From sequence record MK373794.1: a stretch of 64,000 nucleotides of DNA; one strand, written 5' to 3'. The notes beneath the pieces are model-generated. The model was given only the letters and a program-made list of their open reading frames with translations. It was not told where the DNA came from and did no database searches. The position numbers and the translations under genes are program-made. Position 1 is the first letter of the stretch. Each line of letters begins with the position of its first letter. Below are positions 1 through 64,000 of this stretch, in pieces. Source of the DNA: Escherichia phage vB_EcoS_HdK1.

Positions 1-339
1 ATAAAGGGGTCTCGTGGGGTCGTCAGTAGACAACTCAAAAATAAAAAATCTTTATAAAATTTATATAAATACACACATATACACATTTTTACCTTATTTT
101 TCATGCACTTACCTCCTTTCATTTCGTATATTAAGCGACAATATACGAGCAATATAAGAAATATTTGTTGCGCAACAACGAGGCGCTCACAAGCTCGCGC
201 ACGCGCATAATGCGGGCACGCGGTCTAACACAAAAGAAAATTGAATTGCAAGCGATTTTTGCTGAGGTAACTCTCGAAGCGAAAGCGATTTGCGAGTTTG
301 AAATTTTGTAGCCCGAAAACGATTCTATTTTATGGTATA

Positions 340-660
340 AATGTCGGATTTTTCGGTGAAAGGTGGCTTTTCGGTGAGGTTGGGTGGCTGGGATCGGTGT
401 AACTGGTAGCCCATAAAGCGAAAATAGCCGCGAAAACGGGGCACGCAGCGCGATTAAATGGTTGGATCAGTGTAAGGGTGGCGGTGAGGGGGCGAAAATG
501 CCGCAAAATCGCTTACAGGGATGCAGGGAGTGGGCCGCTGTAAGGGCGTATAAGGCGATTAAATTGGAGTCTATGGTAATGTATGGAAGATGGATTTAGG
601 CTCTTAGAGCGCGAATGGTGGAGCTATGGGTGAGGAATATGTGGTCAGCAGGGTAGCGCG
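340..660. repeat. Non-coding G-rich region with reiterated CGGTGAGG / TGTAAGGG-like short motifs
   Basis: No ORF of 60 aa or more; repeated motifs such as cggtgaaagg, cggtgagg, cagtgtaaggg, ggcggtgaggggg, gctgtaaggg, gggtgagg read directly in the sequence. Confidence 0.5.
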
Positions 661-675
661 GGAGGTTATGCAGGT

Positions 676-714
676 ACAAAAACGAAAGCGCCCCGTTGGA
701 CTTCAACAGGGCGC
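676..714 (-). terminator. Rho-independent terminator candidate downstream of the leftward small-gene operon
   Basis: GC stem gcgccc / gggcgc (688..693 and 709..714) with 15-nt loop; on the minus strand it is followed by a T-rich tract (revcomp of 676..687). Lies just past the stop of CDS 738..986. Confidence 0.4.
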
Positions 715-737
715 GGATTGTATAATGCTTTTAGAAG

Positions 738-986
738 TTATTTACTAGTTAATAATACCGCCCAGGTATTATCTGGAAGCGTACCAACTCCGAGTATCTT
801 AAACTGAAGCGACTTGTTCTGCATGTTGTAGTTGTCGAGTAACTCCTGGGCAGCCGCAGCAGCGTTCGCTTCACCGTTCAGGTTGTAGTCGTTTGCAGTT
901 ATTGCACACATACCGAGACCGACCGCTTTGAAGCGCATACCTTTGGATTGAGTCGGTGCAAGTGCTTTAACATGGATAGCGTTCAT
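738..986 (-). CDS. hypothetical protein (82 aa)
   Basis: ORF with GGAGA Shine-Dalgarno-like sequence upstream of the ATG; balanced composition. Confidence 0.6.
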   Translation of the reverse strand: MNAIHVKALAPTQSKGMRFKAVGLGMCAITANDYNLNGEANAAAAAQELLDNYNMQNKSLQFKILGVGTLPDNTWAVLLTSK

Positions 987-1015
987 ATTATTTATCTCCG
1001 TTACAATTTGAAAGG

Positions 1016-1279
1016 TTAGCAGTTTTTTAACAGGTTGATGAAGCCCACCAGCGTGGACGCTGTTGCAACCAGGCGGCCCATAGTATGCAGTTCCGCGTAA
1101 ACTTTACCGTCGTCAAACACAGTTAAATAAACGTTAAGACCATTGCAACGGACGCGATATTTGCGCGAGTTATTACCAAAAGTTTCCAGCTCTGCGGTGA
1201 TAGTCGCAAGATTAGCTATACGTTTGCCGATAATGCGGCGAGTGATAGTGGACTGGTTTAATACTGTAGACATAATCAT
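1016..1279 (-). CDS. hypothetical small protein (87 aa); paralog of 2588..2893
   Basis: ORF with AGAGGAA RBS; N-terminal motif QSTITRRIIGKR shared with the protein at 2588..2893 (QSQITKRIIGKR). Confidence 0.6.
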   Translation of the reverse strand: MIMSTVLNQSTITRRIIGKRIANLATITAELETFGNNSRKYRVRCNGLNVYLTVFDDGKVYAELHTMGRLVATASTLVGFINLLKNC

Positions 1280-1341
1280 TTCCTCTGTTAACTATGCGAA
1301 GTGCATATTATTGCCCACTGTTACTATGGGCAATGTATATG

Positions 1342-1506
1342 TCACTCAGCGGACACATATTCTAACGCTTCTGATAGTGTAGCGAAGTAACCATCGCTCA
1401 CCAGATTAATAGCGTACTCAAGTTGATCGCGGGTCAGGTTGCGAAACTTGTTACGGATGTGATAGCAACGACCGCGATAAATAACCTGGAAATAGTTGCG
1501 TTCCAT
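1342..1506 (-). CDS. hypothetical small protein (54 aa; ORF-track version 1342..1662 is probably over-extended)
   Basis: Internal ATG at 1506 is preceded by AAGGGGA RBS; the longer ORF overlaps the well-formed gene 1517..1762 in another frame. Confidence 0.4.
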   Translation of the reverse strand: MERNYFQVIYRGRCYHIRNKFRNLTRDQLEYAINLVSDGYFATLSEALEYVSAE

Positions 1507-1516
1507 AATTATCCCC

Positions 1517-1762
1517 TTATGCAACGATGAACGCGTAACCGCTTTGATCCGGGAGTTCACCACCGGAAAGAATTTCAAACTCAACGCCCGCTTTATCGCT
1601 GAACTTTTTGATAAGCTCTTCCGCTGCGGCGCGGTGGTTGCCGTAAACACCAAGATCGTCACGCCACGTGATAGTCAAGGAGCCGTTCCAACCTGTTGCT
1701 TTTACGCGCGGGTTACGGGTGGCAGTCGGGTTCATGAATTTTGTGATGATAGCTTGAGCCAT
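1517..1762 (-). CDS. hypothetical protein (81 aa)
   Basis: ORF with GGAG RBS upstream; protein-like composition. Confidence 0.55.
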   Translation of the reverse strand: MAQAIITKFMNPTATRNPRVKATGWNGSLTITWRDDLGVYGNHRAAAEELIKKFSDKAGVEFEILSGGELPDQSGYAFIVA

Positions 1763-1767
1763 GATAA

Positions 1768-1953
1768 TTACTCCGGTAAAATTACAGTGACGTTAATATT
1801 TGCAAGGCGAGCGCACTCGCGGAAACCTTTTACATAAGCATCCATTTCGTCATAGGATGCGAAAGTTGCGTCCGGGACTGGTCCGTTGTTAATATTCACG
1901 CAATATTCGTGTTCGTCCAGGTCAACCCAACAAGTCAGAACGATAGTTTCCAT
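1768..1953 (-). CDS. hypothetical small protein (61 aa; start at internal ATG)
   Basis: ATG at 1953 preceded by GGAGGG RBS; ORF-track version extends to 1986. Confidence 0.45.
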   Translation of the reverse strand: METIVLTCWVDLDEHEYCVNINNGPVPDATFASYDEMDAYVKGFRECARLANINVTVILPE

Positions 1954-2031
1954 ATTATTTGCCCTCCGTATAATACAGACCCGCAACTATTGGAGCTCCG
2001 AAAACTAAGAAAGCTAATAAATAGAACATAA

Positions 2032-2511
2032 TTAGTTACCCCCTTTATTGTTGAGCCCGTTGAATTTACGCCATGCGTAGAATTCAATCGTTGCATTATT
2101 AATATTCCAACCATTAGCTTTCGCAAGGTCACGGACGTTACCAATAGTTGGCACACCATCAGGCAACATATTATCCAGGGCATTCCAAACGTCTGCGCAT
2201 TTACCTTTAATCGGGCGACGAACCCCGTTGCGCGTTTCGCTGCGCGTTTTGCTCTTGGCTGGAGCGACCGGAGCTTGTTGTGTGGTCACTTCCACGACAG
2301 TCGCTTTATCAGCTTCCACCAGATCGCTAGCTGCCTTATTAACCGCGCTTTCGCTGTACCAGTAGCGACCACCGTCTTCGTGCGGTTCCTGGTGAATAAA
2401 GCTATTTGCTGTCGCAGTGTCCACATCCAGAACCTTTTTTAAGGCACGGCGAGCGTTAGACATAGTGGCGAAGAAGCGAGCGTCTTTTGCTACGCGAGTG
2501 ATAGTAACCAT
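2032..2511 (-). CDS. hypothetical protein (159 aa)
   Basis: ATG at 2511 with GGAGA RBS; ORF-track version 2032..2526. Confidence 0.55.
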   Translation of the reverse strand: MVTITRVAKDARFFATMSNARRALKKVLDVDTATANSFIHQEPHEDGGRYWYSESAVNKAASDLVEADKATVVEVTTQQAPVAPAKSKTRSETRNGVRRPIKGKCADVWNALDNMLPDGVPTIGNVRDLAKANGWNINNATIEFYAWRKFNGLNNKGGN

Positions 2512-2587
2512 TGTGAATATCTCCATGTTGTTCTAGCGGATTGCTAGTGGGAGCCCACTGTTACAATGGGCAACCATTAGCACGCTA

Positions 2588-2893
2588 TTATTGTTGAATA
2601 GCTTTATCTATCATTGCGATGAAGCAGAACACAGACCAAAGGCTATTCGCTTGGCATACTGCGCGACCATACATTACGCTATAAGAGCTGACAGTACCGT
2701 CCTCGTTAATGCGAATATATAACGCGGTGCTGGAATACTTTTCGTTGCCCGGGAGCATTACTAAATACTCGTCGAAACCCCAATCCCCGTCGACTTTTTC
2801 CGCAGTAAGGCCCAGTTGGTGCAGTCGCTTGCCAATAATGCGCTTAGTAATCTGAGATTGGGACATGGAACGCGGTAAGTAGATAATGGACAT
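2588..2893 (-). CDS. hypothetical small protein (101 aa); paralog of 1016..1279
   Basis: ATG at 2893 with AGGGAGA RBS; shares the ITKRIIGKR N-terminal motif with 1016..1279; ORF-track version extends to 3010. Confidence 0.55.
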   Translation of the reverse strand: MSIIYLPRSMSQSQITKRIIGKRLHQLGLTAEKVDGDWGFDEYLVMLPGNEKYSSTALYIRINEDGTVSSYSVMYGRAVCQANSLWSVFCFIAMIDKAIQQ

Positions 2894-2968
2894 AATGCAA
2901 TCTCCCTTCGGGTGAGGCGGGCGCGGAACCCGTGTCCCGCTTAACAACCCCCTTAACCCTACACAGTT

Positions 2969-2997
2969 ATAGTATGACAACGGGGTATCAGATGCAA
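2969..2997 (-). promoter_or_regulatory. sigma70-like promoter candidate driving leftward transcription of 2893..738
   Basis: Minus strand reads TTGCAT-N17-TACTAT (revcomp of 2992..2997 and 2969..2974). Confidence 0.25.
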
Positions 2998-3073
2998 CTA
3001 TTATCTGCAATATTTTAGAACTTTTTTAGTTGTGTTTCATAATAATAACATCCGGGACTATGCGGTAGATGGT

Positions 3074-3147
3074 GTGCCGGAAATACCAGGTAGCGCGAGC
3101 GTGCCGAAAATACCAGGTAACAGCACGCGCCGAACATACCAGGTAGC
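3074..3147. repeat. Three 21-bp direct repeats (iteron-like), consensus GyGCCGrAmATACCAGGTArC
   Basis: gtgccggaaataccaggtagc (3074..3094), gtgccgaaaataccaggtaac (3101..3121), gcgccgaacataccaggtagc (3127..3147); spacing 27 and 26 bp; non-coding region. Confidence 0.6.
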
Positions 3148-3535
3148 ACATACATAGACAGCACATAGTGGGCAGGTGGATAGTAACAGATGCAATTATA
3201 CTGGACGGTACAGTATAGTCATGTAATAGATAGCATACTAATTAAATAAAAAATAATAACGCGTGTAACAATAAACAACGTTACAGTAGAGCGCGCAACA
3301 GTCACATGACGTAACAATCACCTCACTGACGATCACGGGACGTTATAGTAACGCCGCGGGGCGGCTCTTAGATCTCTGCCAAGGATTCTAGACGTAAACA
3401 TTGAATCGCCACTAGACTATTTACATCACAACCTCACTCCTCACACAATAATACATAGAATTTAAATCCGTATATAAATACTCGAGATAGTATCTACATA
3501 TTCGAGGATGAGTGCTCAATCATTGTAGGTTATAA

Positions 3536-14863: not shown

Positions 14864-15191
14864 GGACGTCGAACATGAAGAAAAGCATGACACTTCCTCA
14901 TTGCAGGAAACCGAACAGACGGAAGTTGTTGCAGATACCGACAATGCACAATATGAGTCCTTATCTAAGGCTGAAGCAGATAAGGAAACTGTTAACGGTA
15001 AATCGATTGTCACTACGCGAGTAGCTTTAGAAGTCAACGTGAGCGATGCAGTTAAAGCAATGCTCAAAGATATTCCAGATATTGACTTTGACACTGTTTC
15101 TGTGGAAGAGCTTAAAGAATATGAAAAAGTTCTTTTCGGAACAAGTCAACGCAGACAACCAGATGTTATCTGCAATGCACGAACTTGTTGA
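14790..15191 (+). CDS. hypothetical structural protein, fragment 2 of 3
   Basis: Acidic protein-like segment; frame breaks near 15120..15140 in an A/T homopolymer region (aaaaagttcttttc). Confidence 0.45.
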   Translation: MARPSREKMSILLRLGSLVSNPVIEDVEHEEKHDTSSLQETEQTEVVADTDNAQYESLSKAEADKETVNGKSIVTTRVALEVNVSDAVKAMLKDIPDIDFDTVSVEELKEYEKVLFGTSQRRQPDVICNARTC

Positions 15192-17463: not shown

Positions 17464-18645
17464 ATGGCTGAAGGTTCACGTTATAGTAGCTATTACATCA
17501 AAGAACAGACCTCCGGTGTCACTCCGTCTAGCGGAACTCTGAAGGTCTTTCGTGCTACTAAATCGGGTCTTGATATTAAAGTCGCTACTCTGCAATCTGA
17601 AGAAATTCGAGATGACGCGGAAGTGGCGGATTTCCGTCTTGGTGCTCGTCACGTAGAAGGTACAGCAACGGGTGAATTGTCTTATGAGACATTTGACGAC
17701 CTGTTGGGTGGTGCATTACGTGGTACGTTTGCGGGAGAAGCGTTGACCGCAAGTATCGAGCGCCAATCTTTTACCTTTATTGACTATAACGCAGATATTC
17801 CGGATTTCCCGTATACCATCTATCGTGGTTGTGAAGTTAACAGTCTTGCAATTACTGTAAGTGCTGAAGCTATCACCAGCGTGGAATTCGGTATCGTTGG
17901 TCGTACAATGGAACAGGCTGCTACCCTGCCGTCTGGTCTAAGTAAAGGTACTCGTACGACTACGTCACCTATGGATGGCTTCTCTGGTAAGCTAACTATG
18001 GGCGATGTGTCTGTTGATGTTATCACTGAGATGGCTATTAACATTGAGAACGGCATCGAGCCTCGTTTCGTTGTTGGTTCCAAGTTCTCTATCAAGCCAA
18101 GCTCTAAACGTCGTCAGATCAGTGGTACACTGACCGCCTACTACGAAGATAACAAACTGCGTAGTAAATTCCTGAACGAACAGGAAAGCGACCTAACTAT
18201 CGACATCCTGGACGGAACTACTGGTGCTGGTTATCGTTTCAGTATGCCTCGTATCAAGATTACGGAAGCTCCGCGTCCGATCGATGGTGAAGGCGATATC
18301 ATGCTGAACATGAGTTATACTGGTCTGTTGGACCAAGACGAAGGTTACAGCATTCGTATTACTAAACTTCCTCCGATGTCTTTCACGACCGATCTTACAG
18401 GAAACAAGACTATCACTAAAGGACAAACACTAACCCTTTCAGTTGTGGTCAAAGGTGGCGAAGAACCTTATACCTATGTATGGAAGAAAGGTGGTGTTGT
18501 TATTCCGGAAGCTAAACAAGCGACATACACTAAATCTAACGCACAAGAGGTGGATGCCGGTCAGTATGTATGTGAAGTAACAGATTCACATGGTCGTACT
18601 ATACCGAGCACACCTTGCCTTGTTGCTGTTAATCCTGGTGAGTGA
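17464..18645 (+). CDS. major tail protein with C-terminal Ig-like domain
   Basis: 393 aa; C-terminal segment TLTLSVVVKGGEEPYTYVWKKGGVVIPEAKQATYTKSNAQEVDAGQYVCEVTD resembles an Ig-like (Big_2-type) domain as in lambda gpV. Confidence 0.7.
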   Translation: MAEGSRYSSYYIKEQTSGVTPSSGTLKVFRATKSGLDIKVATLQSEEIRDDAEVADFRLGARHVEGTATGELSYETFDDLLGGALRGTFAGEALTASIERQSFTFIDYNADIPDFPYTIYRGCEVNSLAITVSAEAITSVEFGIVGRTMEQAATLPSGLSKGTRTTTSPMDGFSGKLTMGDVSVDVITEMAINIENGIEPRFVVGSKFSIKPSSKRRQISGTLTAYYEDNKLRSKFLNEQESDLTIDILDGTTGAGYRFSMPRIKITEAPRPIDGEGDIMLNMSYTGLLDQDEGYSIRITKLPPMSFTTDLTGNKTITKGQTLTLSVVVKGGEEPYTYVWKKGGVVIPEAKQATYTKSNAQEVDAGQYVCEVTDSHGRTIPSTPCLVAVNPGE

Positions 18646-18651
18646 TTGGAA

Positions 18652-18677
18652 CGGGGTGCAAACCCCGTTTTATTAAG
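18652..18677 (+). terminator. terminator-like hairpin after the major tail gene
   Basis: acgggg tgcaaa ccccgt stem-loop followed by TTTTATT. Confidence 0.4.
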
Positions 18678-18685
18678 GAACGATT

Positions 18686-19114
18686 ATGTCTTCAGAAAAC
18701 AAACAAGTATCCACTGAAGTTGCAAAGAAAGCTGTTGGTACATCTTTCCGTGACTTTAACTTGAAAAAGAAATTAGAGAACGCTCCGCTGCTGCATTACC
18801 CGCTTGTTTTTCCAGGACAGGGCGATACAGGTCACTGGTTGAAAATTCGCAACCGCCACAGCGAAGAATTTCGTCAAGCAGATTTAAAAGCACAACGTCA
18901 GATCAGTGCGCTTGTCGTTGCCAACGGATCTTTTGAAAAGATTGATAAGGACATGCTCGACGATATCAATATGCGAGCGTTCTGTAAGTTGGTTGCTTCG
19001 TGGAGCTTCGAAGAAGAATGCAACGAAGACAATCTTCTTGAATTCTTTGATAATAACCCGTTTGCGTATGACGACATCAACCGTCTGGCAGCGCAAGATT
19101 CCCTTTTTTTCTAA
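18686..19114 (+). CDS. tail assembly chaperone (G-like)
   Basis: 142 aa directly upstream of the tape measure gene, ending in a T-run slippery site. Confidence 0.65.
   Translation: MSSENKQVSTEVAKKAVGTSFRDFNLKKKLENAPLLHYPLVFPGQGDTGHWLKIRNRHSEEFRQADLKAQRQISALVVANGSFEKIDKDMLDDINMRAFCKLVASWSFEEECNEDNLLEFFDNNPFAYDDINRLAAQDSLFF
19104..19110 (+). promoter_or_regulatory. slippery heptamer T_TTT_TTC for programmed -1 ribosomal frameshift
   Basis: Run of seven T then C at 19104..19111, 1 codon before the chaperone stop; the -1 frame is open from 19072 to 19506. Confidence 0.5.
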
Positions 19115-19506
19115 GATCCCGCGAAAAGCTAATTGATCACTTACTGCTCGAATGGCAATTGCACAGTTGCCCGCCGGGCAGTAAGACTCCAACAATTAAA
19201 CATCTCCAGCACGTTAAAAAAGTCACTGGTAAGACTCCCTCCTTACTAGCAAAGTACGAATCCAGCTCCGTACCACACGAACTCAGATACATTTACAAGT
19301 TATTTCTTGACTTTTATAATGGTGATAAATTCAGTTACAGCGAATTTAACGCCTGGCAAGATTATATAGGTGTAGAACTTGATTTCAGAGAGCGTGAACT
19401 AATTCGGGCCAGATTTGTCTTGAACGGCAAGCATTTGATATTAGGCGTCAACAAGAACTTATGCAACACGCTCAGACCAATAATAAAGGAGGTAAATAAT
19501 GGCTGA
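19108..19506 (+). CDS. tail assembly chaperone frameshift extension (G-T-like product)
   Basis: -1 frame relative to 18686..19114, open across the slippery site to 19506; ORF-track portion 19159..19506. Confidence 0.6.
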   Translation, partial: FLRSREKLIDHLLLEWQLHSCPPGSKTPTIKHLQHVKKVTGKTPSLLAKYESSSVPHELRYIYKLFLDFYNGDKFSYSEFNAWQDYIGVELDFRERELIRARFVLNGKHLILGVNKNLCNTLRPIIKEVNNG

Positions 19507-20335
19507 TGCAGCTGACATCGTCATTAGAGTCCGTGCTGAAGGTATTCAGAATGCTGAAACAGCACTGCGACGCTTGCAAGCGGCAGGTGTAAGAGTTGAG
19601 ACTGTCAGCTCGCGTATGGAGAATGGTTTTCACCGTGCGGCTACAAGTGCTGACGCGTTCCATCATGCCATTAGTGCAATCTATACGGTAATGACTGTAA
19701 CCACACTGACATCCTACGTCGGTGGGCTTGCTAAGTTATCGGATGCGTGGCTGGACGTTACTAACAAACTGGCTAACGCCAACTCTGCAAACGAGCAGAT
19801 GGTTGATATTCAAGAGCGAGTATTTGGTATCGCTCAAAGAACTCGTACGAGCCTGGAAGCTACGTCAACTCTTTATGCTCGTATGGAACGTTCACTGAAC
19901 CAGTACGGTGTGACTGGTAAACAGGTCGCTCAGATCACTGAAACAATTAACAAGGCAATGATTGTTTCTGGTGCAACCACTGCGGAATCCACTGCTGCTA
20001 TTATCCAGTTCTCACAGGGTCTGCAATCTGGTGTGTTACGTGGGGACGAATTCCGTTCTGTAATGGAACAAGCTCCTCGTCTTGGTAAGATGATTGCAGA
20101 TGGTCTTGGTGTTGGTACTGCTGGTCTACGCCAGATGGCTAACACTGGACAATTAACCGCTGATGTTGTTATTAACTCCATCTCTAAAGCTGCATCAACT
20201 ATTGACGATGAGTTTAATCGTACAATACCAACGTTCTCTCAGCGAATGGAGATTGCGAATAACAACTTAATTAAATTCGCGGGGAACGTCAACCTCGGTA
20301 CAAACTGTGGTCAATTCAATGGGTGCTGTCATTGA
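19499..20335 (+). CDS. tape measure protein, fragment 1 of 3
   Basis: TMP-like N-terminus; ORF ends at 20335 but protein-like sequence continues in the +1 frame from about 20271. Confidence 0.8.
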   Translation: MADAADIVIRVRAEGIQNAETALRRLQAAGVRVETVSSRMENGFHRAATSADAFHHAISAIYTVMTVTTLTSYVGGLAKLSDAWLDVTNKLANANSANEQMVDIQERVFGIAQRTRTSLEATSTLYARMERSLNQYGVTGKQVAQITETINKAMIVSGATTAESTAAIIQFSQGLQSGVLRGDEFRSVMEQAPRLGKMIADGLGVGTAGLRQMANTGQLTADVVINSISKAASTIDDEFNRTIPTFSQRMEIANNNLIKFAGNVNLGTNCGQFNGCCH

Positions 20336-21458
20336 AACTGCTACAGACCACCTCACCTTGCTGTCTAATGTCGCAATCGGTGTTGCTGCTATTGTTGGCG
20401 GTCGAATGATTACTGCACTGGCTGCACAGATTGCGGCATTCATAAAGCTCAACGCGATACAAGCAAGTAGCTCGGCCATAAACATTAAGACTATTGATGG
20501 TATCACAAGATCCGCAGTAGCTCGATATAATGAAGCACAAGCAACGTTAGCACAGGTTGCAGCCGAGCGCACCAAGATTCAGGCAGCATTGCAAGCCAAC
20601 CAAACGTATTATAAAGGTATAGCGACACTCAACGCATACATGCAGAATACGCGGCAGGTGCGCGAAGCTACGGAAGCGGTTGCTATTGCCCAGACTACCA
20701 TGCAGGCGCGTATGTCTGCCGCGACCGTAGCGTCCCGTGTGCTTACTGTCACCATGACAGGACTGCGGACGGTAATGGGCTTGATGGGTGGACCTGTAGG
20801 TGTGGTCACATTGGCTGCTGCCGCATGGTTCATGTGGAGTCAAAATAGCAAACAAGCTGTCCAGGATGCACAGAACCTTGCTTCCTCCCAAGAAGATTTA
20901 AAGAACAAGTTAAAAGAAACAACTCTTGAACAGCAACGAGCTCTTAGTGTTCAGTTGCAACGTGCCGCTATTACGTTGGACGAACAGATTGCCTCTGAAA
21001 ACAGGGAGTTGGCTGAATTAAAGAACCGTCTTAGCACAGTAACGCGCTATCAAGCTGAAGCAACTGAAGGAACAAGCGAGTATAACCGACTCACTAAAGA
21101 CCGTAAGGAATTAGAAGGTGATGTCGCTATTAAGATTGGTGAAATATCCACTCTTGAGCAAAAAGCACAACAGATTAAATCTAATTTAACGACTGTACTG
21201 AACAATTTAACTGCTGCTGTAATGGGTCACACCGATGCACTCAAAGCAGAAAACGAGCAGTTATCTATTAATATCAGTTCTGCTGCCGGTCGTTCGAAGG
21301 AGCTAGTTAGTGCAATCCAAGCTCAGAATAATGAGCTCGATGTTGCTCAATTGAAGATGTCTGGTCATGCACGACAAGCAAGCATCTTAAAAGATGCTCA
21401 GACAGCTCTTGGTAAGAAGTATAAAGAAAACGAATCGTTCATCCAAGAATTATATTAG
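20307..21458 (+). CDS. tape measure protein, fragment 2 of 3
   Basis: Hydrophobic and coiled-coil segments typical of TMP; second frame break near 21400..21458. Confidence 0.8.
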   Translation: MVNSMGAVIETATDHLTLLSNVAIGVAAIVGGRMITALAAQIAAFIKLNAIQASSSAINIKTIDGITRSAVARYNEAQATLAQVAAERTKIQAALQANQTYYKGIATLNAYMQNTRQVREATEAVAIAQTTMQARMSAATVASRVLTVTMTGLRTVMGLMGGPVGVVTLAAAAWFMWSQNSKQAVQDAQNLASSQEDLKNKLKETTLEQQRALSVQLQRAAITLDEQIASENRELAELKNRLSTVTRYQAEATEGTSEYNRLTKDRKELEGDVAIKIGEISTLEQKAQQIKSNLTTVLNNLTAAVMGHTDALKAENEQLSINISSAAGRSKELVSAIQAQNNELDVAQLKMSGHARQASILKDAQTALGKKYKENESFIQELY

Positions 21459-22761
21459 CGGTCACGCTGACGCAACTGCTGTATTAACGGATGAGCAACG
21501 AGGACTGGTTGAATTTATCAACTTGTCTGGAAAGAACTATGACGCTCAGAAGAAGATCCATGAACAGCAAGAAAAAGAACGTCAGAGTAAGAAAGACAAT
21601 AAAGCTGCCATACGCTATGCTGAACAATGGGATAAAGCATATGAACGCGTAGAAGCGCGTGGTGCTACTGGTTTACAGCGTCTTAACTTACAGCAAGAAG
21701 CTGAAGTTCGTGCTATTCGTGATAAAGCTGAACGAGCTAAAGCATCTGAAGAAGAATTACAGAATGCCTTACTGGCTATTCAACGTAAGTACGATCTGAA
21801 ACGTGCAGAACTGGCAGAGCAGTACAAGCCAGGCGTTGCAATGGTGCGTGCGTACAAAGAAGCCCAGCAAGAAATAAATCAGTTGCTTGAAGCTGGTTTA
21901 TTGACAGAGCAACAGGCATATACGGCTAGATTGAATTTGCAGGCGGATTATTATACAAAACGTGCGCAAATGCAATCTGAATTGAACCCCGCTGGACAAG
22001 CTGCTGATCAAGAAGCTGCTGAACTTGCAACACTTAAATCCCAGTATGAAACAGCGATTGAATTAGCTACTGGTAAGGAAGAGCAACTAACCGCTATCAA
22101 AGAGAACTATGAGCGCATACGACACGACATTCAGTTGAAGTACGCTCAGAAGCAGATGCTCGCACAGAACCAGACGGCAATGGCTTACATTGAAAGTCTG
22201 AGCTCTATGGCTGGATCAATGACCACAATTATGGCGGCTGCTGGCGATGATGCTAGTGGTGCTTACAGGGTTATGTTCGCACTGTCTAAATCGTTCAGTA
22301 TTGCTCAGTCGATGTTAAGTATTACTACCGCACTGTCGCAGGTGTTAGCAGATCCGACAGCATTGACACCGATGCAAAAGATGGCCAACTACGCGACTAT
22401 TGCAGCCGCTGGTGCTAACATTATTTCGACATTATCCAGTGTCGCCCTTACTGGTATGGCTCACGATGGTATAGCCAACGTTCCAGAAGAGGGTACGTGG
22501 CTTCTGAATAAAGGTGAACGAGTTCTTAGTCCCCAACAGAACGCGGACTTTACTAACTTTATGAAGGGTCAATCAAATACTGGCAATAATTCGGGTGGGG
22601 GTGTTATCATTAACCAGAACTTTAACATCCAGGGTAATGGTGATGCAGCTTTGAAAAGCGCAGTTCAACAAGCTGCGAGAGATGGCGCCCAGCAAGGTTA
22701 TAACATGGTACTCCAAGACTTTGCTAACCGTGGATCAATTAGAAAATTAGCGTTGGGGTAA
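21394..22761 (+). CDS. tape measure protein, fragment 3 of 3
   Basis: Coiled-coil rich; the three fragments total about 1,090 aa. Confidence 0.8.
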   Translation: MLRQLLVRSIKKTNRSSKNYISGHADATAVLTDEQRGLVEFINLSGKNYDAQKKIHEQQEKERQSKKDNKAAIRYAEQWDKAYERVEARGATGLQRLNLQQEAEVRAIRDKAERAKASEEELQNALLAIQRKYDLKRAELAEQYKPGVAMVRAYKEAQQEINQLLEAGLLTEQQAYTARLNLQADYYTKRAQMQSELNPAGQAADQEAAELATLKSQYETAIELATGKEEQLTAIKENYERIRHDIQLKYAQKQMLAQNQTAMAYIESLSSMAGSMTTIMAAAGDDASGAYRVMFALSKSFSIAQSMLSITTALSQVLADPTALTPMQKMANYATIAAAGANIISTLSSVALTGMAHDGIANVPEEGTWLLNKGERVLSPQQNADFTNFMKGQSNTGNNSGGGVIINQNFNIQGNGDAALKSAVQQAARDGAQQGYNMVLQDFANRGSIRKLALG

Positions 22762-60692: not shown

Positions 60693-63600
60693 ATAAAGGG
60701 GTCTCGTGGGGTCGTCAGTAGACAACTCAAAAATAAAAAATCTTTATAAAATTTATATAAATACACACATATACACATTTTTACCTTATTTTTCATGCAC
60801 TTACCTCCTTTCATTTCGTATATTAAGCGACAATATACGAGCAATATAAGAAATATTTGTTGCGCAACAACGAGGCGCTCACAAGCTCGCGCACGCGCAT
60901 AATGCGGGCACGCGGTCTAACACAAAAGAAAATTGAATTGCAAGCGATTTTTGCTGAGGTAACTCTCGAAGCGAAAGCGATTTGCGAGTTTGAAATTTTG
61001 TAGCCCGAAAACGATTCTATTTTATGGTATAAATGTCGGATTTTTCGGTGAAAGGTGGCTTTTCGGTGAGGTTGGGTGGCTGGGATCGGTGTAACTGGTA
61101 GCCCATAAAGCGAAAATAGCCGCGAAAACGGGGCACGCAGCGCGATTAAATGGTTGGATCAGTGTAAGGGTGGCGGTGAGGGGGCGAAAATGCCGCAAAA
61201 TCGCTTACAGGGATGCAGGGAGTGGGCCGCTGTAAGGGCGTATAAGGCGATTAAATTGGAGTCTATGGTAATGTATGGAAGATGGATTTAGGCTCTTAGA
61301 GCGCGAATGGTGGAGCTATGGGTGAGGAATATGTGGTCAGCAGGGTAGCGCGGGAGGTTATGCAGGTACAAAAACGAAAGCGCCCCGTTGGACTTCAACA
61401 GGGCGCGGATTGTATAATGCTTTTAGAAGTTATTTACTAGTTAATAATACCGCCCAGGTATTATCTGGAAGCGTACCAACTCCGAGTATCTTAAACTGAA
61501 GCGACTTGTTCTGCATGTTGTAGTTGTCGAGTAACTCCTGGGCAGCCGCAGCAGCGTTCGCTTCACCGTTCAGGTTGTAGTCGTTTGCAGTTATTGCACA
61601 CATACCGAGACCGACCGCTTTGAAGCGCATACCTTTGGATTGAGTCGGTGCAAGTGCTTTAACATGGATAGCGTTCATATTATTTATCTCCGTTACAATT
61701 TGAAAGGTTAGCAGTTTTTTAACAGGTTGATGAAGCCCACCAGCGTGGACGCTGTTGCAACCAGGCGGCCCATAGTATGCAGTTCCGCGTAAACTTTACC
61801 GTCGTCAAACACAGTTAAATAAACGTTAAGACCATTGCAACGGACGCGATATTTGCGCGAGTTATTACCAAAAGTTTCCAGCTCTGCGGTGATAGTCGCA
61901 AGATTAGCTATACGTTTGCCGATAATGCGGCGAGTGATAGTGGACTGGTTTAATACTGTAGACATAATCATTTCCTCTGTTAACTATGCGAAGTGCATAT
62001 TATTGCCCACTGTTACTATGGGCAATGTATATGTCACTCAGCGGACACATATTCTAACGCTTCTGATAGTGTAGCGAAGTAACCATCGCTCACCAGATTA
62101 ATAGCGTACTCAAGTTGATCGCGGGTCAGGTTGCGAAACTTGTTACGGATGTGATAGCAACGACCGCGATAAATAACCTGGAAATAGTTGCGTTCCATAA
62201 TTATCCCCTTATGCAACGATGAACGCGTAACCGCTTTGATCCGGGAGTTCACCACCGGAAAGAATTTCAAACTCAACGCCCGCTTTATCGCTGAACTTTT
62301 TGATAAGCTCTTCCGCTGCGGCGCGGTGGTTGCCGTAAACACCAAGATCGTCACGCCACGTGATAGTCAAGGAGCCGTTCCAACCTGTTGCTTTTACGCG
62401 CGGGTTACGGGTGGCAGTCGGGTTCATGAATTTTGTGATGATAGCTTGAGCCATGATAATTACTCCGGTAAAATTACAGTGACGTTAATATTTGCAAGGC
62501 GAGCGCACTCGCGGAAACCTTTTACATAAGCATCCATTTCGTCATAGGATGCGAAAGTTGCGTCCGGGACTGGTCCGTTGTTAATATTCACGCAATATTC
62601 GTGTTCGTCCAGGTCAACCCAACAAGTCAGAACGATAGTTTCCATATTATTTGCCCTCCGTATAATACAGACCCGCAACTATTGGAGCTCCGAAAACTAA
62701 GAAAGCTAATAAATAGAACATAATTAGTTACCCCCTTTATTGTTGAGCCCGTTGAATTTACGCCATGCGTAGAATTCAATCGTTGCATTATTAATATTCC
62801 AACCATTAGCTTTCGCAAGGTCACGGACGTTACCAATAGTTGGCACACCATCAGGCAACATATTATCCAGGGCATTCCAAACGTCTGCGCATTTACCTTT
62901 AATCGGGCGACGAACCCCGTTGCGCGTTTCGCTGCGCGTTTTGCTCTTGGCTGGAGCGACCGGAGCTTGTTGTGTGGTCACTTCCACGACAGTCGCTTTA
63001 TCAGCTTCCACCAGATCGCTAGCTGCCTTATTAACCGCGCTTTCGCTGTACCAGTAGCGACCACCGTCTTCGTGCGGTTCCTGGTGAATAAAGCTATTTG
63101 CTGTCGCAGTGTCCACATCCAGAACCTTTTTTAAGGCACGGCGAGCGTTAGACATAGTGGCGAAGAAGCGAGCGTCTTTTGCTACGCGAGTGATAGTAAC
63201 CATTGTGAATATCTCCATGTTGTTCTAGCGGATTGCTAGTGGGAGCCCACTGTTACAATGGGCAACCATTAGCACGCTATTATTGTTGAATAGCTTTATC
63301 TATCATTGCGATGAAGCAGAACACAGACCAAAGGCTATTCGCTTGGCATACTGCGCGACCATACATTACGCTATAAGAGCTGACAGTACCGTCCTCGTTA
63401 ATGCGAATATATAACGCGGTGCTGGAATACTTTTCGTTGCCCGGGAGCATTACTAAATACTCGTCGAAACCCCAATCCCCGTCGACTTTTTCCGCAGTAA
63501 GGCCCAGTTGGTGCAGTCGCTTGCCAATAATGCGCTTAGTAATCTGAGATTGGGACATGGAACGCGGTAAGTAGATAATGGACATAATGCAATCTCCCTT

Positions 63601-64000
63601 CGGGTGAGGCGGGCGCGGAACCCGTGTCCCGCTTAACAACCCCCTTAACCCTACACAGTTATAGTATGACAACGGGGTATCAGATGCAACTATTATCTGC
63701 AATATTTTAGAACTTTTTTAGTTGTGTTTCATAATAATAACATCCGGGACTATGCGGTAGATGGTGTGCCGGAAATACCAGGTAGCGCGAGCGTGCCGAA
63801 AATACCAGGTAACAGCACGCGCCGAACATACCAGGTAGCACATACATAGACAGCACATAGTGGGCAGGTGGATAGTAACAGATGCAATTATACTGGACGG
63901 TACAGTATAGTCATGTAATAGATAGCATACTAATTAAATAAAAAATAATAACGCGTGTAACAATAAACAACGTTACAGTAGAGCGCGCAACAGTCACATG
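60693..64000. repeat. Window-end exact duplication, copy 2 (identical to 1..3308); contains duplicate copies of the small minus-strand early genes
   Basis: Same as copy 1; all ORFs at 61430..63702 duplicate those at 738..3010. Not re-listed individually. Confidence 0.9.

Follow-up and report, generated by a model that had tools for sequence, protein, structure and literature searches.

The tail gene region of Escherichia phage vB_EcoS_HdK1 (sequence record MK373794.1) contains a short open reading frame (ORF), here called G, whose 3' end carries a run of seven T residues and is overlapped by a second open frame, T, in the -1 phase. Is this junction the site of a programmed -1 ribosomal frameshift that yields a G-T fusion protein, or are G and T two separately translated genes, products of slippage during transcription, or a single gene broken by a sequencing error? 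The question was addressed in a 64,000-nucleotide stretch of the record, referred to below as the window (all positions are those of the window), and in related phages. We put the probability at about 0.9 that the site is a programmed -1 ribosomal frameshift of the lambda-type G/G-T tail assembly chaperone.

The signal and the two frames can be read directly from the window. The 3' end of the G ORF reads ...GAT TCC CTT TTT TTC TAA. The initial annotation had placed a T_TTT_TTC heptamer at 19104..19110, one codon before the chaperone stop. The heptamer is indeed present and in phase, but 19104-19110 is the run of seven T residues and the correct interval is 19105..19111; furthermore, TTC is itself the last sense codon, and the TAA at 19112-19114 abuts it. 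In the window as it stands, the open stretch of the -1 frame is exactly 19072-19506. It overlaps G over 14 codons (19072-19114), and T_TTT_TTC is the only in-phase heptamer within this overlap. As in-phase XXXYYYZ heptamers occur at 0.0029 per codon across the ORFs of the window, about 0.04 of them would be expected in these 14 codons. The significance of the site lies in its phase, its position at the junction of two domains with homologues elsewhere, and its conservation over 69 loci, taken jointly.

In the proposed mechanism, most ribosomes translating G (18686..19114) would terminate at the TAA at 19112 and release a G protein of 142 amino acids (aa), while a minority would slip on U_UUU_UUC (19105-19111). 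The two tRNA-Phe molecules on UUU and UUC would re-pair one base back with UUU and UUU (cognate or wobble pairing), the next codon would be CUA (19111-19113), and reading would go on in the -1 frame. The predicted G-T fusion has about 270 aa, its C-terminal T domain corresponding to the Pfam family Phage_TAC_18. On the lambda model, the tape measure protein would be coated by G together with the G portion of G-T, the T domain would recruit the tail tube protein, and the efficiency of frameshifting would set the ratio of G to G-T. The sequences show the signal, the frames, the synteny, the conservation and the homology of the two halves; slippage on the ribosome, its efficiency and the functions of the two proteins are what we infer. 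In E. coli, heptamers of the form H_HH.U_UU.Y, including U_UUU_UUC, rank with the most efficient -1 motifs that have been measured, and U_UU.U_UU.C, which is used by insertion sequence (IS) elements, gives more than 0.1% shifting without a stimulator (PMC4066793).

Conservation was examined in 69 loci, 19 from GenBank (found by tblastn with G) and 50 from IMG/VR, in each of which the homology of G and of T was placed separately. The loci span the Queuovirinae, Bradleyvirinae, Craquatrovirus, Knuthellervirus and marine phages, with protein identity falling to about 25-30%. T lies in the -1 frame of G in 68 of the 69, and an in-phase slippery heptamer is found within the G/T overlap in 67, so the comparison with related phages proposed in the initial annotation favoured it, as relatives retain both a slippery site and the extended -1 frame. 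TTTTTTC is the most frequent heptamer (51 loci), followed by TTTTTTA (7), AAAAAAG (6), TTTTTTT (2) and AAATTTT (1); the heptamer T_TTT_TTC is invariant across all Nonagvirus relatives, and the EC151-like phages carry TTTTTTA followed by TTTAAAG. Six IMG/VR contigs (L038, L039, L042, L044, L046 and L060) have A_AAA_AAG at the homologous junction, encoding Lys-Lys in place of Phe-Phe, and these loci keep the downstream T motif ...QLYEWA.HE.EL.... Since Lys-Lys replaces Phe-Phe at the same junction, it is slipperiness that has been conserved and not the amino acids; the exchange of T_TTT_TTC, T_TTT_TTA and A_AAA_AAG at one homologous junction across the 69 loci illustrates cleanly that the recoding signal, rather than the peptide, has been selected. 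Past the heptamer, the zero frame goes on for 0 to 38 codons, and this tail is of low complexity, rich in Ser and Thr, and not conserved. When the G-T fusions reconstructed for 15 phages were aligned, the junction was free of gaps and flanked on both sides by invariant residues. In Seuratvirus, the first base of the heptamer is also the first of the open -1 frame, and the G stop follows the heptamer immediately; as this frame overlap comprises only 10 nucleotides (nt) and starts at the heptamer, the shift site is pinned there.

Both halves of the putative fusion have homologues. G matches PHROG 569 (expect value, E, 1.9e-30) and PHROG 313, 'tail assembly chaperone' (E 2.1e-14); its match to Pfam PF08748 (Phage_TAC_4) is weak (16.9 bits, E 0.0076) and falls below the gathering threshold of 21.1 bits. 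The T extension matches PF23812 (Phage_TAC_18) with 51.7 bits (E 9.4e-14) in the window and 58.2 bits (E 9e-16) in phage 9g, both above the curated gathering threshold of 27 bits. On the PHROG 569 profile (256 positions), G aligns with positions 5-125 and the T extension with positions 160-249; as the two are colinear on this profile, both halves are known elsewhere as a single chain. Pfam gave no match of G or T to the lambda chaperone families, and a PDB sequence search with the G-T profile returned only chance matches to DNMT3 (E of at least 0.028), that is, no solved homologue by sequence.

The surroundings of the junction agree with this assignment. The 1-kilobase (kb) stretch around the site is 94-98.7% identical to 17 GenBank phage records, every one of them from the genus Nonagvirus (subfamily Queuovirinae), including 9g, JenK1, JenP1/2, SE1, HdSG1 and FritzHoffmann, and the G protein is 100% identical to those of SE1 and JenK1. 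The gene order in the window is tail terminator (PF13554), tail tube (PF18906), G, T in the -1 frame, and tape measure (PF20155), and the annotations of the relatives show the same order around G and T. The product of the tube gene is labelled tail subunit or major tail protein in 9g and ESCO3. The claim that the locus matches the G/G-T chaperone arrangement upstream of tape measure genes is thus borne out by the synteny, the -1 frame, the homology of the extension, the conservation and the annotation of phage Seurat. The features of the region are collected in Table 1.

Table 1. Features at and around the G/T junction, in window coordinates.
Feature	Position	Strand	Basis and remarks
Major tail (tube) protein gene with C-terminal Ig-like domain	17464..18645	+	PF18906 Phage_tube_2, E 1.3e-41, and Ig domains; upstream neighbour defining the synteny
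Terminator-like hairpin, ACGGGGT-GCAA-ACCCCGT + TTTATT, in the gap between tube gene and G	18651..18675	+	Read from the sequence
G, tail assembly chaperone ORF, 142 aa	18686..19114	+	Stop TAA 19112-19114; ORF list and translation
Slippery heptamer T_TTT_TTC	19105..19111	+	Zero-frame codons TTT 19106-19108 and TTC 19109-19111; stop adjoins
T extension, authentic part	19111..19407	+	First codon CTA, from the re-read C of the heptamer; PF23812, E 9.4e-14; PHROG 569 positions 160-226
Stable RNA hairpin in the T coding region	19140..19185	+	Stems 19140-19150/19175-19185 and 19154-19160/19165-19171; contains TTG 19159
Private 2-nt insertion, GG C to GGG CC (two adjoining one-base homopolymer expansions)	19408..19409	+	Alignments with 9g, FritzHoffmann and ESCO3
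T remainder in the ancestral frame	19410..19499	+	Stop TAA 19497-19499, overlapping the tape measure ATG at 19499 as TAATG
Tape measure gene, downstream neighbour	19499..22761	+	PF20155 TMP_3, E 4.3e-59; split into three ORFs in the window

The 3' limit of the T frame needs to be corrected. The -1 frame had been described as open from 19072 through 19506, and this holds for the window as written, but its 3' part is not the biological frame. The T sequence of the window equals that of JenK1 and SE1 through ...ELIR, after which a 2-nt insertion at 19408-19409 changes TTCGG-CAG to TTCGGGCCAG. This insertion is missing in all 17 GenBank relatives, each of which is 2 nt shorter, and in all 8 IMG/VR relatives; in all 8 of these IMG/VR Nonagvirus loci, T has the same length as in 9g. 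The T frame of the relatives runs through ...ELIRQICLERQAFDIRRQQELMQHAQTNNKGGK* to a TAA that shares a TAATG with the tape measure start codon; in 9g and FritzHoffmann, the T ORF ends on the first base of the ATG. Past the insertion, the -1 frame of the window instead reads ...ELIRARFVLNGKHLILGV...NNG*, to a TGA at 19504-19506, and it reaches 19506 only because the shifted frame by chance has no stops. The last 30 or so codons of the open frame in the window therefore do not belong to the real T frame, and because of the same insertion the Phage_TAC_18 match breaks off at residue 100 in the window, compared with residue 107 in 9g. Most likely, the insertion is a sequence error.

When 15.1-23.1 kb of the window was compared with 9g, FritzHoffmann and ESCO3, four further private insertions of 1 nt were seen, at 15133, 15813, 20281 and 21443, each of which lengthens a homopolymer by one base. 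Because of those around 20281 and 21443, the tape measure gene appears in the window as three ORFs, 19499-20335, 20307-21458 and 21394-22761; in 9g, this gene is an intact ORF of 1086 aa. All five private insertions (15133, 15813, 19408-09, 20281 and 21443) look like sequence errors rather than biology. The G/T shift, on the other hand, is common to every relative while the other breaks are unique to the window, and the initial annotation was right to set it apart from them.

These private insertions bear on the suspicion that the G/T junction is itself an artefact or a pseudogene, G and T being one continuous ORF and the frame change a homopolymer sequencing error. The window clearly holds homopolymer expansions that break conserved ORFs at those five places, and the slippery site is homopolymeric too. 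However, the run of seven T residues and the -1 offset are identical in 17 of 17 GenBank and 8 of 8 IMG/VR Nonagvirus sequences, which come from independent projects, and the -1 offset recurs in 68 of 69 loci over several virus families, whereas the other frame breaks occur in the window only. The comparative data have already effectively refuted an artefact, and we regard its probability as negligible. A change of frame could also arise during transcription, if RNA polymerase stuttered on the T7 run (19104-19110) and added one U to some of the mRNAs; one extra nucleotide would yield the identical -1 product, and both the homopolymer of seven T in Nonagvirus and a run of nine T in one locus (L055) would suit such a process. 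Yet the conserved run consists of only 6-7 T or of A6G, below the 8-9 or more residues established for efficient slippage by bacterial polymerases (PMC5009743, PMC4066793), and in Seuratvirus it is T6 only. Moreover, the X_XXY_YYZ phase, for which polymerase slippage has no need, is kept in 67 of the 69 loci, and we consider this origin of G-T highly improbable.

Another explanation is that G and T are separate genes, with T initiated at the TTG at 19159 or reinitiated past the G stop, and with the heptamer merely an incidental coding of Phe-Phe. This is how the records present them: every Nonagvirus record inspected in which T is annotated (9g, JenK1, HdSG1 and FritzHoffmann) has a separate T ORF of 112 aa starting at the equivalent of TTG 19159; before 19260, the T frame has no other start-like codon. 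With just 16 codons ahead of this TTG, the -1 frame there could be open by chance. However, the TTG has no Shine-Dalgarno (SD) sequence and is located within a stable hairpin of about -25 kcal/mol, and the starts chosen by gene callers are inconsistent among the relatives, the ESCO3, ZQG1 and PMBT14 records having no second ORF. In addition, among Nonagvirus and K9PH25C2-like phages, the T-frame segment from the heptamer to the TTG (16 codons) varies 12/5/1 at codon positions 3/1/2 and encodes conserved residues (REKLI...LLxW; LxW). Given the third-position variation and these residues, the segment is under coding constraint in the -1 frame, and it is readable only by ribosomes arriving from G. 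The heptamer, too, has been held at the nucleotide level, or exchanged for AAAAAAG, over deep divergence, and in both PHROG 569 and the deposited Seurat protein G-T is one chain. Separate initiation of T is, in our judgement, very unlikely.

Several observations weigh against a programmed frameshift at this site. The string TTTTTTC is not over-represented in the window, where it occurs 8 times compared with 16.5 +/- 3.9 expected from shuffled sequences. The counts over the 69 loci are not independent, as many of the loci are closely related and near-identical ones are included, and two loci depart from the pattern. In PaMx28 (L013; JQ067089.2, 'partial genome'), the only locus of the 69 without the -1 offset, positions 1871-1877 carry T6 where the relative Ab18 has T7, and T lies in the +1 frame; this T6 is probably a homopolymer error. 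In Serratia phage Tlacuache (L018), at about 1790-1810, the Phe-Phe of the junction is encoded by TTC TTT, which is not slippery, although T is still in the -1 frame. Tlacuache is counted among the 67, its one in-phase heptamer (AAAGGGT) lying away from the junction; its shift site may be an A_AAG tetramer (CGA AAG) two codons upstream. None of the Nonagvirus records inspected joins the G and T ORFs, a collection of about 15 billion public proteins contains none of 7 reconstructed Nonagvirus G-T fusions, and for all Nonagvirus phages the G-T product appears to be without experimental detection.

The expected stimulators are lacking as well. A canonical cassette of the dnaX/IS3 type would have a stem-loop or pseudoknot about 5-9 nt downstream of the heptamer and/or an SD-like element 6-17 nt upstream of it. 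The search for a downstream stem-loop or pseudoknot that the initial annotation had suggested found no canonical stimulator 5-9 nt after the heptamer; the 30-40 nt past the heptamer are unstructured (z of 0.03 compared with shuffled sequences and -0.9 compared with synonymous recodings), and reading of the 34 nt before it revealed no SD-like motif. The only strong hairpin in the region (19140-19185) begins 28 nt after the heptamer; since this exceeds the usual spacing of 5-9 nt, it is no canonical stimulator. An Rfam scan of 18600-19600 at E<=1 gave no known RNA family. A 4-base-pair hairpin (GAUC...GAUC) just after the stop was tried as a candidate stimulator and rejected (z of 0.03).

Although distant, the hairpin at 19140-19185 appears, from sequence comparison, to be under selection. 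The segment 19112-19190 has a minimum free energy of -29.1 kcal/mol, with z of -4.86 compared with dinucleotide shuffles, and the hairpin segment of the window has z of -3.2 compared with synonymous recodings. The segment from +22 to +99 was more stable than its synonymous recodings in all 8 enteric Queuovirinae lineages tested (z of -2.3 to -5.2); recoding z-scores for high-GC relatives (Xp12, Ab18 and others) were excluded as evidence, being unreliable because the codon usage of the window had been applied to them. The Nonagvirus and K9PH25C2-like hairpins differ by compensatory changes at two pairs, one from C-G to U-A and the other from A-U to G-C. Both changes of the A-U to G-C pair are synonymous third-position changes, and of the C-G to U-A pair just the 5' change is synonymous. 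Covariation was counted only between these two groups, since the register of the 3' arm differs in the EC151-like phages and in Seuratvirus, which have hairpins at the same place with different pairing registers. The hairpin might occlude the TTG, block reinitiation, contribute to mRNA stability or modulate the shift.

The spacing of the hairpin differs between distant and enteric relatives. In many distant relatives, in which the zero frame continues for 6-38 codons beyond the heptamer, a hairpin is predicted 5-8 nt downstream, at canonical spacing (loci L009-L015, L017, L038-L040, L043, L049, L053, L054, L060, L063 and L065). In the enteric lineages, the stop is adjacent or nearly adjacent to the heptamer and the hairpin lies 18-30 nt downstream; in the lineage of the window, the stop codon is the sole feature adjoining the heptamer. 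Stops flanking slippery runs, named 'shifty stops', reportedly can enhance shifting, a finding attributed to Weiss et al. in 1987. It is possible, though we think it doubtful, that in the enteric Queuovirinae (Nonagvirus, K9PH25C2-like, EC151-like and Seuratvirus) a stop abutting the heptamer together with a selected hairpin 18-30 nt away has replaced the canonical stem-loop at 5-8 nt, and that the long-spacer hairpin is a functional part of the recoding signal. If so, this would be a non-canonical arrangement of a -1 frameshifting cassette, and the hairpin might tune the ratio of G to G-T via ribosome queuing, or might prevent reinitiation or independent synthesis of T after termination. A hairpin 28 nt downstream, outside the usual spacing rule for frameshift stimulators, is a point of some interest in itself.

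Returning to the programmed frameshift, its mechanism is textbook, and the site is the ortholog of one already annotated in Seuratvirus. Literature searches on frameshifting in Nonagvirus and Seuratvirus found no paper on the G/T site. As the Seurat site has been annotated and its product deposited, whereas the Nonagvirus fusions are absent, the site is known in the sister genus and unannotated in Nonagvirus. In RefSeq NC_029021.1 (JenK1), gp14, the 142-aa G, is labelled 'tail length tape measure protein' and T 'hypothetical protein', and G and T are labelled likewise in NC_024146, NC_042025, NC_029028 and NC_028997; the name given to G appears to be a misannotation inherited from the label of PHROG 569. 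Since the fusion is absent from the protein databases, a joined G-T coding sequence should be added to the Nonagvirus records. The chief value of the present analysis is this annotation fix, as the records examined list G and T as unrelated small proteins.

Some other features of the region deserve mention. The terminator-like hairpin between the tube gene and G would leave the chaperone and tape measure genes less transcribed than the tube gene. The HdSG1 record has a putative terminator at the equivalent place; a consensus terminator scan of the region called none, this hairpin included. A consensus scan for promoters gave 4 promoter-like sites in the region compared with 2.2 expected, which is near chance level. 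Within the T coding region, at 19292-19320 and some 180 nt before the tape measure gene begins, there is a sigma-70-like match (TTTACA, 17 nt, TATAAT; 11 of 12 positions), which may be due to chance. At the ends of the window, positions 1-3308 and 60693-64000 are identical in all 3,308 bases, and the window thus represents one genome unit of 60,692 base pairs plus a wrap-around. The source of this terminal identity is either a circularised or concatenated representation or a long terminal repeat.

How does the site compare with known systems? Phage P2 is said to use a -1 frameshift on six T residues (T_TTT_TTG) to extend its tail assembly protein from E to E+E', as described by Christie et al. 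in 2002. Unlike the phage studied here, P2 is a myovirus, its proteins belong to an unrelated family, and its heptamer ends in G rather than C. E. coli dnaX and the IS3/IS911-type elements share with the window the tandem-slippage X_XXY_YYZ heptamer and the same host translation system, but they add an SD-like element on the upstream side and, 5-8 nt downstream, a stem-loop or pseudoknot, neither of which is present in the window. In lambda, the heptamer is G_GGA_AAG. The arrangement that Xu, Hendrix and Duda are said to have described in 2004 comprises G and a less abundant G-T, which are required for tail assembly and are both reportedly absent from virions. Here the heptamer is T_TTT_TTC, T belongs to PF23812 and G is weakly related to PF08748, and the system is known from its sequence alone. 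According to PMC5009743, lambda gpG/gpGT resembles the window in lying between the major tail and tape measure genes, in making a short product and a -1 fusion, in having its heptamer near the end of G, in needing no strong stimulatory structure and in its low expected efficiency. The ratio of G to GT in lambda is about 30:1, so that shifting of about 3% suffices (Levin et al. 1993; Xu, Hendrix and Duda 2004, 2013, 2014, as given in PMC5009743).

The closest counterpart is Seurat (Seuratvirus, Queuovirinae), whose CPT_Seurat13/14 (AIW03877.1 and AIW03876.1) form the orthologous pair, with about 45% identity in G. It differs from the window in belonging to another genus, in having T6 instead of T7, and in that its -1 frame opens exactly at the heptamer; its hairpin, though similarly placed, differs in sequence and in pairing register. 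As in the window, T_TTT_TTC stands directly before the stop and the -1 extension runs to the tape measure start. In the Seurat record (KM236243), the orthologous heptamer is annotated as ribosomal slippage, and the junction rule used here (Phe-Phe, with the last base re-read) yields exactly the deposited 268-aa protein, AIW03876.1.

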